From: Phascolarctobacterium succinatutens
Lineage (GTDB): Bacteria > Bacillota > Clostridia > Christensenellales > CAG-917
NCBI GenBank assembly: GCA_963593735.1
Contig: CAVBBF010000002.1
Location: forward strand, 17,762-81,761
Length of the DNA: 64,000 bases
Reading direction: 5' to 3'
In this document: in pieces, positions 1-26,690 of the stretch
How the letters are laid out: each line of letters starts with the position of its first letter
Numbering within the stretch: the first letter of the stretch is position 1
Position numbers and translations under genes: made by a program
The notes under the pieces: model-generated
Told to the model about the DNA's origin: nothing
The model's database searches: none
What the model saw: the letters and a program-made list of their open reading frames with translations, nothing else

Positions 1-1056
1 GTTTTTAAGCCCTGCAAGTACGTTCTTCCTCTCGTTTTGCGTGCAGGAACTCGTAAGCAATGTAAATCTTATCCCCATTGCCTTTGCCACATTCGCAAAC
101 TTTTTTGCGTGTTGAGTTGCAAGTATTTCGGTGGGTGCCATAAGCGCGGCTTGCTTTCCGCCTTTTGCCGCAGTACACATTGCAAAGAACGCAACGGCGG
201 TTTTGCCGCTTCCTACGTCGCCGCTTATTATTCTCGACATATATTTGCTCGAGCACATATCCGACATAATATCTTCAAATGCATGTTCTTGCGAGGATGT
301 CGGAAGAAAAGATAACGTATTTTTATAGTCAACTATTCTAAAATTATCAAAATTATATAATACTTTTCTTGTTTTTTGAGCATTGTTGCGCAATTTTCTG
401 TATATCGACAGCACGATTGCAAGGTCGAGCGACGCAAGCGAATCTATCGCCCTTTCGGCAATATTTATGCTTGTGGGTCTGTGCGCCGCCTCGAAACACA
501 GTGCGAAATCCTTGTTTATTTTGGCAAGATTGCCCTCGTACGTTGTGCCTTTCACACTGTCGAGCGCAGAGAAAACAATATTCTTAAATGCGTTCTGCCC
601 CATCACTCCGCCAAGCGGATAGAGCGTGTATATGCCGTCGAGTTTTGAAATCTTCTCTATTTTTTCAAGCGAGGGATTTACGACGGTGAGCGAGCCTTGA
701 TCGCTTGAAAGCCTCGTGAGCATTCTGTACGACTGCCCGACTGAAAATCCGTCGTGCAAAAACGGCATATTGTAAAACATCGCCTTGAAATAGATTTTGT
801 TGTTTGCAAGGTTGTCGCTGAATATGACAAAAAAGGACTTTGTTTTCGAGCGAGTCACGCTCGATACGCTCTCCACTCTGCCTTCGAACAATGCGAGTTG
901 TCCTGCCTGTGCGTCGAGAACTTTTATAGGTCTTTTGAGGTCGATATACTTGCGTGGCAAAAAAGAAAAGACCTCGAATACTGAATGTATGTCAAGGTCG
1001 TTTAGTTTTTTTATCGTTGCGTCACCGACGCCTTTTACATCGCGCAACGTAAGCAT
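1..1056 (-). CDS. recG: ATP-dependent DNA helicase RecG, N-terminal part (continues past left edge)
   Basis: Not in the ORF track because its stop lies outside the window. My own translation of the minus strand from the ATG at 1056 stays open for all 352 codons: MLTLRDVKGVGDATIKKL...ISGDVGSGKTAVAFFA...APTEILATQH, including a Walker A motif. The ATG lies 1 nt after the yloV stop, matching the Bacillus order yloU-yloV-recG. Confidence 0.8.
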   Translation of the reverse strand, partial: MLTLRDVKGVGDATIKKLNDLDIHSVFEVFSFLPRKYIDLKRPIKVLDAQAGQLALFEGRVESVSSVTRSKTKSFFVIFSDNLANNKIYFKAMFYNMPFLHDGFSVGQSYRMLTRLSSDQGSLTVVNPSLEKIEKISKLDGIYTLYPLGGVMGQNAFKNIVFSALDSVKGTTYEGNLAKINKDFALCFEAAHRPTSINIAERAIDSLASLDLAIVLSIYRKLRNNAQKTRKVLYNFDNFRIVDYKNTLSFLPTSSQEHAFEDIMSDMCSSKYMSRIISGDVGSGKTAVAFFAMCTAAKGGKQAALMAPTEILATQHAKKFANVAKAMGIRFTLLTSSCTQNERKNVLAGLKN

Positions 1057-1057
1057 A

Positions 1058-2713
1058 TTATTCTGCGGAGATTATGTAGAAATAATGCGGTTGTCCGCCC
1101 GCATAGCAAGCGGTTTCAAGCCAGTCGAATTCTTCGGAAACCTTTGAGACAAGCGCATTTGCCTCGTCGTCGGACACGTCTTTGCCGTAATAGAGAGTGA
1201 GCATATCCTTGTCCTTTGCGATTTTTCTTATCGTATCGAGCGTCGTTTCCTCTATGCTTTGGCTCTTTGCGACGATTTTCTTTTCGCAAATGCCGATTAT
1301 ATCGCCTTCTTTGACGGAATATCTGTTCATACGAGTTGAACGAACGGCGTGCGTAACTTCGGCGCAAGTCACGCCGCGCATTGCAATGCACATATTTTCA
1401 TAATTATCTTCGGGCGTGGAATCCGAATCGAAAGCAAGCGAAGCGGAAATACCCTCCGGCATATTTGTCGTCGGAATGACGTACACTTCTGCTTTTGCCA
1501 GATCCTTTGCCTGATTTGCGGCGAGAATGATGTTAGAGTTGTTGGGAAGCACGAAAACGTTTTTGGCTTTTGCGTCGTTGACCGCTTTGAGAATGTCGTC
1601 AACGCTCGGATTCATCGTCTGTCCGCCTTCGACCACGATATCCACCATCAAATCTTTGAATATGTTTGCCATACCCTCGCCCGAGCAAATGGAAATCATT
1701 GCGTATTCTTTGAGCGTCTCTTCCTCTTCGAGTTTGTCGTTTGCGTGGATTTTGCGGTTTTGTTCGAGCATATTCTCGATTTTCACGCCGTCGAGTTCTC
1801 CAAGGCCCAAAGCCGCTTTCAACGCTCTGTCGGGGTGATTGGTATGAACGTGTGTTTTTACAAGGTCGGTGTCGCCTATGACAAGCACGCAATCGCCGAT
1901 TGTCATAAGATAATCTCTATACTTGTTGATTGCGGCAGTCGTAACCTCGTTTTTGAGGTGCGTGATAAAATATTCCGTGCAGTATTGAAAGGTTATGTGT
2001 TCATAGTCGTTTTCGAGCGGATCGAATTCCTCGCTCGGTGCCACGAGCGGCGCACTCACTTCCGTAGCGACTTTTCCGCCGCTGATAAGCACGAGTTCCT
2101 CGCCTACAAGCGTGCGATACATGCCGTCAAACACCGTGACGAGACCTCTGCCGCCTGCGTCCACGACACCCGCTTTTTTGAGTACGGGAAGCATATCGGG
2201 TGTCTTTTGCAGAATTTCCTCGCCTGCGTCTATAACGCGTTTAAGGAAGGATTCGAATTCGATTTTTTTGCCTTTAGACGCACTTTGCGCTTCTTCAGCC
2301 ATTGCTCTGACAACGGTCAAAATGGTGCCTTCTTTGGGTTTTGTGACCGCGCTGTACGCAATTTCCGTACCTTTTTTCAAACACTCGGCAAAAGTTTTTG
2401 GCGAGAGGTCGGCTTTGCCTTCGAGAGCAACGGCGAATCCTCTGAAAATCTGAGAAGATATAACGCCCGAATTGCCTCTTGCGCCTTTGAGTGCGCCTTT
2501 TGAGAACGCGAGCGCGATTTCGTCTATGAGCAAAGAGCCGCAAGCGTTTGCTTCTCTCACAGCCGACGCGAGCGTGAGCGACATATTGGTGCCGGTATCG
2601 CCGTCGGGAACGGGAAATACGTTGAGTTCGTCAACTATAGCCCTGTTCATTTCGAGAGCCTTTGCGCCGCCTTGCAGCATTTCTTTGAATTTTAATCCGT
2701 CAATTCTTATCAT
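1058..2713 (-). CDS. yloV: DAK2 domain fusion protein YloV
   Basis: 551-aa ORF with an N-terminal DhaL/DAK2 signature (FPVPDGDTGTNMSLT). Conserved position after the Asp23-family gene. Confidence 0.85.
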   Translation of the reverse strand: MIRIDGLKFKEMLQGGAKALEMNRAIVDELNVFPVPDGDTGTNMSLTLASAVREANACGSLLIDEIALAFSKGALKGARGNSGVISSQIFRGFAVALEGKADLSPKTFAECLKKGTEIAYSAVTKPKEGTILTVVRAMAEEAQSASKGKKIEFESFLKRVIDAGEEILQKTPDMLPVLKKAGVVDAGGRGLVTVFDGMYRTLVGEELVLISGGKVATEVSAPLVAPSEEFDPLENDYEHITFQYCTEYFITHLKNEVTTAAINKYRDYLMTIGDCVLVIGDTDLVKTHVHTNHPDRALKAALGLGELDGVKIENMLEQNRKIHANDKLEEEETLKEYAMISICSGEGMANIFKDLMVDIVVEGGQTMNPSVDDILKAVNDAKAKNVFVLPNNSNIILAANQAKDLAKAEVYVIPTTNMPEGISASLAFDSDSTPEDNYENMCIAMRGVTCAEVTHAVRSTRMNRYSVKEGDIIGICEKKIVAKSQSIEETTLDTIRKIAKDKDMLTLYYGKDVSDDEANALVSKVSEEFDWLETACYAGGQPHYFYIISAE

Positions 2714-19757: not shown

Positions 19758-19986
19758 AACGAGCGCCTTTTTGCGACTTTTTGTCGCATTTTAACTACAA
19801 CCACTATACCACATATTGTGCCGTTTATCAATTTTTTCAAGAAAATAGCACAAAAATCCTCGAAAAAAGTGCGTTTGGATTATTGATTTAATAAATCAAT
19901 TATGTTATCCTATTCATATCTTGGATTATAGAGGGATTTTTTTATACGAAAATTCTTCTGTTTTCCGCGCGGAGGAATTTATTTTT

Positions 19987-21618
19987 ATGGTAAATTTTGA
20001 TGAAATCGAGTTTCTTGAAAGCGAAATCGTGGACGATGACCCCACCGCCCCCGTCGGCACTTTGGTGCATATCACCGAGGATGGTAAAGTCGAACCCGTT
20101 GAACAAAAAGACAATCGGGCAGTCGAATCCGACGTGCAAAACGAAACTCGCCAAGACGAGATGGTTGAGGTCGAAAATTCCGATAACGAACAAAACGATA
20201 TGGCGCAAACCATAACGACGGACATTCAAGACGAGCCGCAAATCGAAGAAACCGTTAAGCCCGAAGATGAGGTTGTAGAAATTTCTCAACCCGATACGAT
20301 CGAGCAAACGGAAGAAGCCAAAGATGCAGCCGACGTTGCAGGCGAGCAAGCCATGCAAGTCGAAGACGAACCGGCAGAAACCGTCGAAACGGAATCCGCA
20401 CCCGAAATTGCAGACGAAACTGTCGTAGAACCCAGCGATGAAGCACAAGAGGTCGCACCGCAAGCCGAAATCGTCGAAGAAACTTCCGCACTTGAAGAAA
20501 CAATGCCCGTCGAAGAAACCGTTGCGGAAAGCAACGCGGTTGTCGATGAATCCGCGCAAGCAGCGAAAGACGAGCAAATCGCAGTCGAAGCCCCCGTGCA
20601 AAAGACAAGAAAACCGAGAAAACCTGCGCAAAAGAAAGAAGCCGCACCCGATGTCGTCAACGACGATGAACACAAGACTTCCCTCAACCTCAAAAACGGC
20701 AAGTCCGTGAACGAGGAATTGTTCGGAACGAATTTCGAGATTCAACAACCTGCAAAGGCAAAAATCGTGTCCACCAAGAAGAAACAAGAAAAGGCGGAAG
20801 ATTTGTGGGCGGTTGCAAGCGTTGCGCAACCCAAGAAAGAAACCGCTACGGCAAAGGAAGATGCGCAAAAAGATACGGTGCCCGTCAAAAAGACAACGAA
20901 AAAAGCGGTCAAAACGACAGAATCCGCCCCCAAAGCGGAAAAAATTGCTGTCGAATCCGCTCCGAAATCAAACGACGAGGATGTCAAATCGGCACCCAAG
21001 AAAACCGCTTCCAAAAAGTCAACAAAAGTTGAAAATATAAACAAATCTACGGAGGAAACAAAAGTGGCAAAAGCAACGGAAAAGGCAGCAGCGGAAGAAA
21101 AGACCGTGAAAGCGAGCAAGACAGCAGCAAAAGAAGCACCAGTCAAGGAAGAAAAGGCTCCAAAAGCGGAAACAAAAACCGCAGCAAAATCAGATGAGAC
21201 CGTTATCGTTGAAGGCGAAGGCAAAACGCACGGCAAGTACGTCATCAAAAAGACGGACAAAGGCAACTTTGTGTTCAAACTTTATTCCTCGAATTACAGA
21301 GTCGTGGCAATCGGCGCACAAGCCTACACCACTCTCGGCGCGGCAAAAATCGGCATTCAGAGCATAATCAACAACGCCGAAAAAGCGCCGATCGAAAACC
21401 AAACTTTGAAAAACTATGAAACGTTGAAGTTCCCCAAATGGGAAATCTATCTTGACAAGAAAGGCGAATATCGTCTCCGCTTGTACGCAACCAACGGAAG
21501 CCTCATCGCAACCACCAACGACGGCTATGTTGACATCACAGGCGCAAAGAACGGCATTGCGGCAGTATCAAGAGCAAGCAAGGGCTGCGCAATCGTGAGA
21601 AACGACAACCTTTGGTAA
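19987..21618 (+). CDS. Low-complexity acidic/lysine-rich protein with C-terminal tandem DUF1508 (YegP-like) domains
   Basis: I place the start at ATG 19987, with GGAGG at 19971-19975. The track ORF instead begins at a TTG at 19921. The last 128 aa (21232-21615) contain two YegP-like repeats (GKYVIKKTDKGNFVFKLYSSNYRVVAIGAQAY... and KWEIYLDKKGEYRLRLYATNGSLIATTNDGY...). Confidence 0.6.
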   Translation: MVNFDEIEFLESEIVDDDPTAPVGTLVHITEDGKVEPVEQKDNRAVESDVQNETRQDEMVEVENSDNEQNDMAQTITTDIQDEPQIEETVKPEDEVVEISQPDTIEQTEEAKDAADVAGEQAMQVEDEPAETVETESAPEIADETVVEPSDEAQEVAPQAEIVEETSALEETMPVEETVAESNAVVDESAQAAKDEQIAVEAPVQKTRKPRKPAQKKEAAPDVVNDDEHKTSLNLKNGKSVNEELFGTNFEIQQPAKAKIVSTKKKQEKAEDLWAVASVAQPKKETATAKEDAQKDTVPVKKTTKKAVKTTESAPKAEKIAVESAPKSNDEDVKSAPKKTASKKSTKVENINKSTEETKVAKATEKAAAEEKTVKASKTAAKEAPVKEEKAPKAETKTAAKSDETVIVEGEGKTHGKYVIKKTDKGNFVFKLYSSNYRVVAIGAQAYTTLGAAKIGIQSIINNAEKAPIENQTLKNYETLKFPKWEIYLDKKGEYRLRLYATNGSLIATTNDGYVDITGAKNGIAAVSRASKGCAIVRNDNLW

Positions 21619-21635
21619 GCAACAAAAACACATTC

Positions 21636-21662
21636 AAAAAGGACGCAATTTGCGTCCTTTTT
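21636..21662. terminator. Bidirectional intrinsic terminator
   Basis: AAAAA-GGACGCA-ATT-TGCGTCC-TTTTT, lying between the convergent DUF1508 and DUF1893 genes. Confidence 0.75.
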
Positions 21663-21689
21663 CATTACCTTTTGCGTTTATCCTTTTTA

Positions 21690-22127
21690 TTATTTATTTG
21701 CGTTTTGAGAGCGCAAAAATGCAAGTTTGTGTTTTATCGCGGCAAGACATTCGTCGGGGTTTTGCAAGTCTTTTACCGCTTCTTCCATCGGACAACTTCC
21801 CGTGCCTTGCCTATTAACAATCACGTCTGCGAGAATGCCGTATTCGGCGTAAAGCCCGTTTAATCTAAGATAATCATAAGCGGTTTTTGACATAACGTTT
21901 GCGTACACGGCGGCGATTCCGCTTTTGACGAACATCGAGGCAACCGCCTTACCGACGATTACGTCGGCGGCGCAAAAGCCTCTCAAATCGACGTTGTCGT
22001 CGATATAACCCACCATAGGAAAAACCCCGCGTTTGTCGGAGAGAAACAAAATTTCGTCCTTGCAGAGCGCAAGAGTATGCCCTGCGAGATTGTTCTTTGC
22101 TTTTTGTAAATCTGTTGCGTTATACAT
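21690..22127 (-). CDS. DUF1893 (TM1506-like) domain protein
   Basis: 145 aa. The segments ...ADVIVGKAVASMFV...NRQGTGSCPMEEAV resemble the TM1506 family as I remember it. Confidence 0.6.
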   Translation of the reverse strand: MYNATDLQKAKNNLAGHTLALCKDEILFLSDKRGVFPMVGYIDDNVDLRGFCAADVIVGKAVASMFVKSGIAAVYANVMSKTAYDYLRLNGLYAEYGILADVIVNRQGTGSCPMEEAVKDLQNPDECLAAIKHKLAFLRSQNANK

Positions 22128-25317: not shown

Positions 25318-25513
25318 ACAAACCTCTTGACTATCGAATATTTTATAAAATTATTATATCATCTTCTTTACGCATTGTAAATAAATAAAAATCTACGTCG
25401 TTTTAGTACGCTTGCAATACTTTAACCGCAATTTCAGCATAGATTTCTTGATTAAAATATGTGACACTTTATGTGACAGAATACAGCGGAAACGGGCGGA
25501 AAATCAAACACAT

Positions 25514-25544
25514 AAAAAAACAAAAACCCCACTAAACAGTAGGG
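25514..25544 (-). terminator. Intrinsic terminator closing the tRNA-Ser/repeat unit
   Basis: On the minus strand, a CCCTACT-GTTT-AGTGGGG hairpin (one mismatch) followed by TTTTTGTTTTTTT. Confidence 0.6.
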
Positions 25545-25561
25545 TTTTTGCACTTTGTTGC

Positions 25562-26352
25562 GGAGAAGATGTAAGTCGTTGCTATGCAACAAACATCTCT
25601 TTGCTCCGCAGGTCACCTGCCAGCGTAGACAATCCTGCAATGCTTCGCATTTTTACTTTTTCTTATGCTCGCAAACTCGTGCAAGCACGGTTGCGGACAG
25701 AAGAAGATGTAAGTCGTTGCCTTGCAACGAACATCTCCTTGCGCCGCAGGCTAAGAAGAGATTCGCCAATCAGCGAAGCGTGTGTGCTTGCACACATAGC
25801 GGAGCGTGCAACGAAGAGTTCGGCAACACAGTTGCCAACGGCATGAGAAATGCCGTTGAATCTCTCTTCTCCTTCTCTGCTTTTTGAAGAAGATGTAAGT
25901 CGTTGCTTTGCAACGAACATCTCTTTGCTCCGCAGGTCTCCTGCCGTCGTAGACAATCCTGCAATGCTACGCATTTTTGCTTTTCTTATGCTCGCAAACT
26001 CGTGCAAGCACGGTTGCGGCCAGAAGAAGATGTAAGTCGTTGCCTTGCAACGAACATCTCCTTGCGCCGCAGGCTAAGAAGAGATTCGCCAATCAGCGAA
26101 GCGTGTGTGCTTGCACACATAGCGGAGCGTGCAACGAAGAGTTCGGCAACACAGTTGCCAACGGCATGAGAAATGCCGTTGAATCTCTCTTCTCCTTCTC
26201 TGCTTTTTGAAGAAGATGTAAGTCGTTGCTTTGCAACGAACATCTCTTTGCTCCGCAGGTCTCCTGCCAGCGTAGACAATCCTGCAATGCTTCGCATTTT
26301 TGCTTTTTCTTATGCTCGCAAACTCGTGCAAGCACGGTTGCGGACAGAAGAA
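25562..26352 (-). repeat. Tandem composite repeat A1-B1-A2-B2-A3 (323-bp period), candidate structured-RNA array
   Basis: A units are about 132 nt (25562-25693, 25886-26016, 26209-26340) and differ at a few positions. The B units 25699-25885 and 26022-26208 read identical over 187 nt. Core hairpins lie at 25562-25612, 25700-25750, 25886-25936, 26023-26073 and 26209-26259. Strand was inferred from G-U pairs. Confidence 0.75.
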
Positions 26353-26382
26353 AAAGCAACCCTACGGGTTTCGCAGGATTGC
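26346..26382 (-). terminator. Hairpin plus U-tract immediately after tRNA-Ser
   Basis: On the minus strand, GCAATCCTGCG-AAACC-CGTAGGGTTGC followed by TTTTTCTTCT. It contains two G-U pairs that would be A-C mismatches on the plus strand. Confidence 0.6.
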
Positions 26383-26389
26383 CTTTCGG

Positions 26390-26482
26390 TGGCGGAGAAG
26401 AAGAGATTCGAACTCTTGAACCGCTTTTGACGGTTACGCGATTTCCAGTCGCGCGCCCTCGACCAAACTAGGCGACTTCTCC
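26390..26482 (-). tRNA. tRNA-Ser (anticodon GGA), class II with long variable arm, CCA encoded
   Basis: Folded by hand from the reverse complement. Acceptor stem GGAGAAG/CTTCTCC; D stem GCC/GGC. Anticodon stem CGCGA/TCGCG with loop CTGGAAA. Variable arm AACCG-TCAAAAG-CGGTT; T arm AAGAG-TTCGAAT-CTCTT. Discriminator G followed by CCA. Confidence 0.9.
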
Positions 26483-26488
26483 GTTTTT

Positions 26489-26538
26489 TGGTGGGAAGTC
26501 GAGGTTTGGTACGCAGTACCATTAAACACGACTTCTCC
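26489..26538 (-). ncRNA. tRNA-like minihelix / pseudo-tRNA fragment in the tRNA-Ser leader
   Basis: Minus strand: GGAGAAGTCGTGTTTAATGGTACTGCGTACCAAACCTCGACTTCCCACCA. The first 10 nt are identical to the tRNA-Ser 5' end. The 5' arm GG(A)GAAGTCG pairs with the 3' arm CGACTTCC, with one bulged A. There is an inner hairpin GGTAC-TGC-GTACC and a 3' ACCA. It does not fold as a cloverleaf. Confidence 0.3.
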
Positions 26539-26575
26539 ATAAGTTATATTTAATTATTTTAGTTGCTATACAAGT

Positions 26576-26643
26576 GGGTGGCAGTTGGAAGCGAATGGAA
26601 AACAAAACCATTTCCTCCAACTGTTCACGGGGTACTGCTACCC
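26576..26643. other. Long imperfect hairpin in the tRNA-Ser leader
   Basis: The outer arms GGGTGGCAG (26576-26584) and CTGCTACCC (26635-26643) enclose the hairpin TTGGAAGCGAATGG-AAAACAAAA-CCATTTCCTCCAA. The strand of function is ambiguous because the wobble evidence is mixed. Confidence 0.4.
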
Positions 26644-26661: not shown

Positions 26662-26690
26662 ATTATATATCAACAAAGCGATTTTGACAA
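26662..26690 (-). promoter_or_regulatory. Near-consensus sigma-A promoter of the tRNA-Ser unit
   Basis: On the minus strand, TTGTCA (26690-26685), a 17-nt spacer, then TATAAT (26667-26662). Confidence 0.6.

Follow-up and report, generated by a model that had tools for sequence, protein, structure and literature searches.

The 64,000-nt stretch of DNA analysed here (the window) carries a tandem array directly downstream of a minus-strand tRNA-Ser(GGA) gene. The array has the same sense as the tRNA and is flanked by the hairpin of the tRNA terminator and by a strong terminator. Our best explanation, to which we give about an even chance, is that two att-bounded mini-elements without cargo accreted in tandem, or were duplicated, at an attB in tRNA-Ser(GGA) and so gave rise to the array, and that the array is resized by recombination between its modules. 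Phages and defence cassettes of related bacteria occupy the same core sequence, either at the tRNA itself or behind a module, and crossovers inside modules lie behind the copy-number differences among strains. tRNA genes are well-known landing sites of phages and genomic islands, and the repeats left at them are usually treated as inert scars. The "scar" described here is a compact, attP-size unit that is compensatorily conserved across genera, occurs in strain-specific number and sits at a site that collects defence genes.

Five modules behind tRNA-Ser(GGA)

An earlier, sequence-only reading of this DNA claimed an array here, and Tandem Repeats Finder bears it out with a single array at 25564-26352 (period 323, 2.4 copies, 96% matches, 0% indels, score 1515); a repeat search finds within it a 300-nt pair at 98% identity and a spacing of 323. 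The A-B-A-B-A order given by that reading also stands, but the description missed the module shared by A and B, the strand, the linkage to tRNA-Ser, the likeness to the tRNA 3' end and the hotspot context. Alignment of the five units shows that A and B both open with the same module of ~51 nt (plus strand GAAGAAGATGTAAGTCGTTGCYTTGCAACGAACATCTCYTTGCKCCGCAGG). Thus, the array is better described as five modules with two alternating bodies, which measure ~80 nt (A) and ~136 nt (B) between modules and give gene-less units of 137 and 186 bp. All five copies of the module in the 64-kb window fall within the array (chance expectation 0).

With the unit boundaries of the earlier reading, B1 and B2 are identical at 191/192 positions (99.5%). 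The sole difference is the cggAcag/cggCcag position, which had already been noted when their near-identity was first pointed out. The A copies are identical at 128/132 (A3/A2), 127/132 (A3/A1) and 123/132 positions (A2/A1); the proposed range of 4-6 differences therefore holds for the first two pairs (4 and 5) and is slightly exceeded by the third (9). The most diverged unit is A1, which is terminal in the array, and together with the 99.5% identity of B1 and B2 this agrees with the suggested recent duplication or homogenisation. The 12 nt at 26341-26352 had been taken as the start of another B. They are present, but are in fact the junction (minus sense CTTCTTCTGKCCG) found after each B module at the start of an A body; after the tRNA the same sequence forms the 5' arm of a long hairpin.

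Read in the sense of the tRNA, the locus runs from a promoter-like site through a structured leader, the tRNA, the hairpin T1 and the units A3-B2-A2-B1-A1 to a strong terminator and the promoter of a gene for a 194-aa protein (Table 1).

Table 1. Features of the tRNA-Ser(GGA) locus in the order of transcription of the tRNA (positions in the window).
Feature	Position	Strand	Basis or remark
Sigma-70-like promoter TTGTCA-17-TATAAT, upstream of the tRNA leader	26662..26690	-	11/12 consensus matches; consensus match only
Leader hairpin, starting with a copy of the tRNA 5' end (GGAGAAGTCG...CGACTTCCCACC)	26490..26538	-	Read from sequence
tRNA-Ser(GGA) with encoded CCA	26390..26482	-	ARAGORN; Rfam tRNA 54.2 bits
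tRNA trailer and hairpin T1 with U tract, terminator-like	26350..26389	-	Terminator scan
Unit A3, first after the tRNA; module 26209-26259	26209..26349	-	Alignment, repeat search, covariation
Unit B2, body between inverted and direct copies of the tRNA 3' end; module 26023-26073	26017..26208	-	
Unit A2; module 25886-25936	25886..26016	-	
Unit B1; module 25700-25750; 99.5% identical to B2	25694..25885	-	
Unit A1, last unit; module 25564-25612	25562..25693	-	
Strong intrinsic terminator, 14-bp stem and T run, closing the array	25520..25551	-	Terminator scan
Conserved flank that carries TTCCGC repeats and, at 25457-25477, TGTCACATA twice in direct orientation	25400..25519	-	Resembles an attachment-site arm

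Unit A3 consists of a long hairpin H2 (arms 26300-26321 and 26338-26359), a mini-hairpin (ATGCGAAGCAT), a segment complementary to the tRNA trailer, a hairpin (GCAGGAGACCTGC) and the module. At the other end of the array, the A1 module closes with ...ACATCTTCTCCGC, a degenerate copy of the tRNA 3' end that is joined directly to the terminator. The gene beyond encodes an unrelated 194-aa membrane protein and has its own promoter. A hairpin homologous to the terminator lies directly after the tRNA in the loci L039 and L041, and after a cassette in L029. The conserved flank occurs in L041 between the tRNA and a convergent phage tyrosine integrase, and also at the end of the viral contig L043.

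Several smaller features surround these parts. The two direct TGTCACATA repeats (plus strand tatgtgacactttatgtgaca), which come after the TTCCGC repeats, fall within the promoter region of the 194-aa gene and are candidates for integrase arm-type sites or for an operator. The loop of the terminator hairpin is inverted between species (CCCTACTGTTTAGTAGGG vs CCCTACTAAACAGTAGGG; L039 7989-8012 and L041 9590-9615 vs the window), which looks like a hairpin flipped by recombination between its arms. On the other side of the tRNA, a leader unit of ~60 nt opens with a copy of the tRNA's initial 10-11 nt, which folds back on CGACTTCCC. This leader unit is found once in the window, once in L039 (7829-7888) and twice in tandem in L029 (5200-5319). 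Thus, the tRNA is accompanied on either side by copies of its own ends. A further conserved hairpin (CAGTTGGAGGAAATGG...CCATTCGCTTCCAACTG, then CCACCCA; ~26574-26630, minus strand) lies downstream of the promoter-like site and ahead of the tRNA. It recurs in L009, L018, L030, L039 and L041, has no match in Rfam and, on the other strand, lies upstream of a gene for a CNNM transporter.

The array and insertions at the tRNA-Ser site in relatives

Some 15 related gut Clostridia have the tRNA-plus-unit arrangement, each at a single locus that holds 1 to 5 modules. Exact-pattern scans place the module hairpin in five related genomes (Firmicutes bacterium CAG:238, Christensenella sp. UBA7571 and three uncultured Clostridia, two of which are labelled Clostridia and one Clostridiales) and in eleven human-gut metagenome contigs. 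At 13 loci, T1 and an A unit stand at a fixed distance behind tRNA-Ser(GGA) and in its sense, with 0-4 more A or B units after them. One module is found in L017 and L020, two in L001, L008, L009, L016, L019, L023 and L024, three in L015, L022 and L025, four in L006 and five in the window. Since every genome with the array has it at a single locus, it is not a multi-copy mobile element, a case that had been named as one that would overturn the first description. The module is 88-100% identical even where the adjacent CNNM protein is only 78% identical. Three other CNNM homologues (P0003, P0009, P0036) lie at loci with a different synteny and no tRNA-Ser, and are uninformative.

The proteins flanking L001 and L006 are 100% identical to those of the window, and both therefore belong to the same species. 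The expectation that copy number could vary between strains was correct, as these loci carry 2, 4 and 5 modules (L001, L006 and the window, respectively), counts taken from assemblies of unspecified read type. L006 closes with a B/A1 hybrid module, and the last module of L001 is B-type with an A1-type end; these hybrids show that the strains differ through unequal crossovers inside modules. An assembly artefact, in which a single A-B unit was expanded or a longer array collapsed, could be suspected from the counts of 2, 4 and 5 in metagenome-assembled genomes and from four further assemblies of the species that end inside the array. We consider it very improbable. The copies differ from one another (A1, A2 and A3 at 4-9 positions), A1 has its own variant of the module, the alternative forms have distinct hybrid junctions, and multi-unit arrays occur in independent species. 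Whatever its function, the array is a ready locus for strain typing and one that breaks short-read assemblies.

The units resemble the end of the tRNA. The core, CTTCTTCTCCGCCA, comprises the final ~15 nt of the tRNA. Full-form modules (L010, L030, L039, L045) terminate in ...ACATCTTCTTCTCCGCCA, whose last 15-16 nt match the tRNA 3' end exactly; as a result, a perfect direct repeat surrounds a single A unit in L030, L010 and L045. In L039 the terminator directly follows the tRNA, a diverged module and core lie 308 nt further on, and the 308-nt segment is enclosed by a direct repeat of the tRNA 3' end. Such attachment-site-like repeats are thus 15-16 nt long at these four loci, and the repeat at L018 is 41 nt. 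For the match between the module end and the tRNA 3' end, none of 2000 shuffles scores as high. The module stem (AAGAGATG...CATCTTCTT) is similar to the tRNA's T-stem and acceptor strand (AAGAG...CTCTTCTT), while the B body has an inverted 18/20 copy of the tRNA 3' end at its start and an exact 13-nt copy at its end. In L045, B is present in full form and has a terminator hairpin of its own immediately behind the core; hence A and B share one layout: core, terminator, body, module, core. The internal junctions of the window have degenerate cores only (CTTCTTCTGKCCGC, CTTCTTCAAAAAGC).

The same site receives integrase-bearing elements in two relatives. In L041 a terminator comes after the tRNA, and beyond it lie TTCCGC repeats, TGTCACATA in two copies, and a prophage with a convergent tyrosine integrase; a search of viral contigs for this integrase confirmed nothing. 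In L045 a prophage with a large serine recombinase abuts the core, T1, an A unit and a module. The prophage end is a diverged copy of the tRNA 3' region (GCGGTTCAAATTTATCCTCGCCTA) and is joined to T1 at CTCCGCCACC. The open reading frame of the L045 recombinase (928-2655, minus strand) crosses the attachment junction and the whole A unit to the end of the module, and ~57 of its C-terminal codons would come from host-side DNA. Either the recombinase gene contains the attP or it is by chance that the frame stays open.

Other insertions stand at the same core. L018 has a one-gene insertion between the tRNA and the A unit, with the 41-nt direct repeat covering the tRNA end and T1. L029 lacks A and B units and has a one-gene cassette between the tRNA and the terminator. 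The same restriction-modification (RM) island stands behind the last module of L020 and L023, which differ from each other in their A units, and GmrSD stands behind the third module of L015. An AbiA and methyltransferase cassette is found in L010, a HEC-01A/B cassette in L011 and a gene for a beta-lactamase-like protein within a duplicated B unit in L022; these three islands, and that of L041, were read without their far ends. Across strains and species the site thus holds 0-5 modules, and its cassette content varies as well. The defence cassettes (RM, GmrSD, AbiA, HEC-01) are integrase-less, and the cassette genes are all co-oriented with the tRNA. At the end of six cassettes the motif AAATTCGATTTACGTTACTAAC precedes CTCCGCCA. 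This motif and core are also present in two viral contigs, and the cassettes may therefore be att-proximal remnants of prophages.

The left regions of different cassettes are shared (L018 2540-2660, L029 5740-5900, L015 7080-7200). They contain a long inverted repeat (GGGTGCTTGAC...GTCAAGCACCC), then GTGCCATTTGAAATTTATTCCGAAATTCTACGTCCGCAAACTCAATAGCGGTTGAAAAAT and a TTGAAA/TATAAT-like promoter. A part of the B body (GTGTGCAAGCACACACGC) resembles this region.

The junctions at the site follow a simple rule. Through the core CTCCGCCA, one of four left partners (the T-arm of the tRNA, a module, the cassette motif, a phage arm) is linked to one of three on the right (T1 with the A body, the B terminator, the chromosomal terminator). 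This is the pattern expected of repeated site-specific integration at one attB. We suggest that integration at the 3' end of tRNA-Ser(GGA), a heavily used site, left the DNA of the array behind, where it was reshuffled. The full-form layout, in which the core CTTCTTCTCCGCCA is followed by a terminator hairpin, a hairpin-rich body, a 51-nt module imitating the T-arm and the acceptor 3' strand, and a second core, is that of an integrated element reduced to its two attachment-site arms without cargo, like a very small cis-mobilizable element. The A-B-A-B-A order may have come from tandem accretion, from duplication or from both. T1 probably serves as the terminator of the tRNA, and the modules may still act as secondary attachment sites. 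If so, they would account for the build-up of defence cassettes behind one tRNA that stays intact, and would provide a simple marker with which to find hotspots of this kind in uncultured gut Clostridia. An excised unit is predicted to form a circle with the module-core-T1 junction …GACTTACATCTTCTTCTCCGCCACCGAAAGGCAATCC…. No mobile element with the module in its attP was found: the full module pattern gave 0 matches in viral contigs, and BLAST of the array in distant mode gave none in phage and plasmid collections.

Conserved structure of the units

Two observations argue against a plain or dead scar. The unit is conserved out to species in which the CNNM protein is 78% identical, a distance at which a scar should decay, and it forms strand-specific, covarying hairpins, which double-stranded recombination sites do not require. 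Covariation was assessed on the first unit (A) aligned from 12 species. In this alignment 96.4% of cells form standard pairs, and pairing falls to 36-49% when partner columns are slid by 1-3. Two-sided changes occur at 17 pairs, compared to 6.8 +/- 1.7 in shuffles, and 0/500 shuffles reach 17. Covariation is strong in T1, H2 (9/12 pairs), the mini-hairpin and the inner hairpin of the module. The mini-hairpin changes compensatorily, as does the inner module hairpin, in which CGTTGC/GCAACG becomes CTTTGC/GCAAAG in L030 and CATTGC/GCAATG in L018. For B units, covariation was judged by eye, and a strict B pattern recovered one B unit only.

The fold belongs to the strand in the sense of the tRNA, since G.U cells outnumber A.C cells by 49 to 11. 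A helix P1 of 16 bp, between the tRNA trailer and a distal segment of A3, is found in 12 species, with G.U pairs that are valid in the tRNA sense only. For the trailer, which here includes the CCACC of the tRNA end, the 3' arm of T1 and the distal A segment are alternative pairing partners, and both options are kept in 12/12 species. The second pairing is worth -23 to -32 kcal/mol in every species. The fold of the 323-nt unit has z = -6.6 in the tRNA sense vs -4.8 on the other strand. The conservation of T1 would be explained if T1 terminates the tRNA transcript; it stands where relatives without units have the tRNA terminator. For that of H2 and the mini-hairpin we have no explanation at the level of double-stranded DNA, and this unexplained structural conservation is the part most worth following up. 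A function of the units as RNA or as single-stranded DNA is possible, although we would not expect it.

We entertain with some doubt the reading that the units are a structured non-coding RNA, made as a long 3' trailer of tRNA-Ser by read-through of T1, with units that mimic or pair with the tRNA 3' end. Such an RNA could control maturation of the tRNA, act as a decoy for tRNA-directed enzymes or be a small RNA dosed by copy number, and it would constitute an undescribed tRNA-linked family. The covariation, the tRNA-sense bias in wobble pairs and folding energy, and the pairing of the trailer in every species all point this way, as do the promoter-like site upstream of the tRNA and the position of a strong terminator only after the array. 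Against it, T1 is a good terminator located exactly where unit-less relatives end the tRNA transcript, and full-form A and B both begin with a terminator, so that the units would be transcriptionally insulated. Furthermore, the promoter scan found no promoter-like sites inside the array, and later units lose parts of the structure, e.g., the third unit of L015. Rfam gives no family match for the array, either at the gathering threshold, which the tRNA alone passes, or at E <= 10. The best other scores in Rfam 15 are far under gathering (e.g., Clostridiales-1, 19.9 vs 48 bits).

The same fold has been weighed as DNA. The units could be folded single-stranded recombination sites, like integron attC or the attP hairpin of CTX phage, that are anchored at the tRNA and capture integrase-less defence cassettes. 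Structure is kept while sequence varies, the wobble pairs are strand-asymmetric, and the cassettes are co-oriented and share a 3' boundary motif. In addition, the trailer and tRNA 3' end pair in the fold with the distal GGTGGCAGGAGA, which recreates the core duplex with one bulged base. We regard this reading as decidedly unlikely. No integrase of integrons, or of any kind, is encoded in the ORFs scanned, and inspection did not find the R''/R' boxes (RYYYAAC/GTTRRRY) paired at the hairpin bases, which also led us to reject an integron or CALIN. Ordinary phages with tyrosine and serine integrases use the same site, and the cassette motif in viral contigs allows the cassettes to be prophage remnants instead.

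It is unlikely, too, that the units are a maintained structured element, either folded single-stranded DNA or read-through RNA, that presents copies of the tRNA-Ser 3' end as a landing pad or decoy. A landing pad, if real, would recruit phage integrases and assemble integrase-less defence cassettes behind a tRNA in gut Clostridia, and would be an integron-like platform in a phylum from which we know of no described integron. A decoy would shield the tRNA gene.

Comparison with known systems

The array of two mini-elements that we propose has its nearest counterparts among repeats at tRNA and tmRNA genes. The ssrA islands of Dehalococcoides have tandem direct repeats of the tmRNA 3' end with a non-tmRNA motif just upstream of each (PMC3146451). 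Both systems have several copies of the gene's 3' end downstream of it, a motif foreign to the gene before each copy, strain-variable islands between repeats and site-specific integrases at the same site (PMC3146451). Here, however, the intervals are 137 and 186 bp, gene-less and formed by the same two units in alternation. The repeat and its flank form a 51-nt hairpin module kept across genera, and the interval is held by compensatory changes. Cis-mobilizable elements (CIMEs) keep attL and attR but have lost the genes for integration and transfer, and they can stand in tandem at the 3' end of a target gene through accretion (PMC5704250; Pavlovic et al. 2004 cited there). The units share the tandem, att-bounded arrangement without integration genes. 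Unlike CIMEs, which span kilobases, carry genes and have been shown to be mobilised, the units are about the size of an attP and are known from sequence alone. We rejected a CIME with genes between attL and attR, as the units of 137 and 186 bp are without a credible ORF, changes in loop length shifting the frame.

Integron attC sites and CALINs have in common with the array a series of structured sites conserved more in fold than in sequence, strand specificity and co-oriented cassettes without a recombinase. They differ in that the array has no IntI and no R/L boxes, is anchored at a tRNA, has a constant module and is used by ordinary phage integrases. BOX and BIME/REP elements are likewise modular, of A/B make-up, variable in module number and able to form stable hairpins, but are dispersed in tens to hundreds of copies per genome, whereas the array is single-locus and tRNA-linked. 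Dispersed mosaic repeats and MITEs were rejected on the same distribution, 5/5 window copies being in the array and all genome and metagenome matches being single-locus and linked to tRNA-Ser. CRISPR arrays also combine a direct repeat with a hairpin and intervening sequences. Here the repeat is 51 nt and the intervening sequences are of two repeated types (80 and 136 nt), the feature from which the earlier reading had excluded CRISPR; we concur, as the ORFs scanned between 8.5 and 48 kb contain no cas gene or domain.

A protein repeat had likewise been argued against, and correctly. The hairpins vary by compensatory substitutions, and the loop of the module is not constant but varies by one nucleotide from copy to copy and from species to species, a change that would put any reading frame out of register. 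We rejected on these grounds a 103-aa ORF (25986-26297, minus strand) whose ATG lies in the module, is preceded by GGAG and stays in frame through B (186 nt, 62 codons): the loop is one nucleotide shorter in L008 and L015, and the variation is compensatory within stems. A T-box leader was considered from elements found by eye (GGTGGYA...CCTGCGG, pairing to GCCA), but there is no match to RF00230 at E <= 10 and the context is wrong, the array being followed by a terminator and then an unrelated gene with its own promoter. RNA repeats of type III toxin-antitoxin systems (~36 nt, upstream of an endoribonuclease toxin) do not fit the period of 323 nt, and the gene downstream of the array differs between species and encodes a membrane protein in the window. 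In sum of class, the array is not a CRISPR, a protein repeat, a dispersed mobile repeat or a member of an Rfam family.

The ORFs scanned from 8.5 to 48 kb include no integrase, transposase or cas gene. They are housekeeping genes or genes unrelated to recombination, e.g., those for PriA, NAD-dependent DNA ligase, PcrA, Rho, LepA, TrmD, Ffh and the CNNM transporter. A 565-aa ORF at 19921-21618 (plus strand) matches DUF1508 at its C-terminus only and is conserved beside PcrA in L004, L029 and L039. The 2-kb bin at 20001-22000, over most of this ORF, shows an AT skew (+0.35) much higher than elsewhere in the window, which suggests that the product is compositionally biased and probably repetitive.
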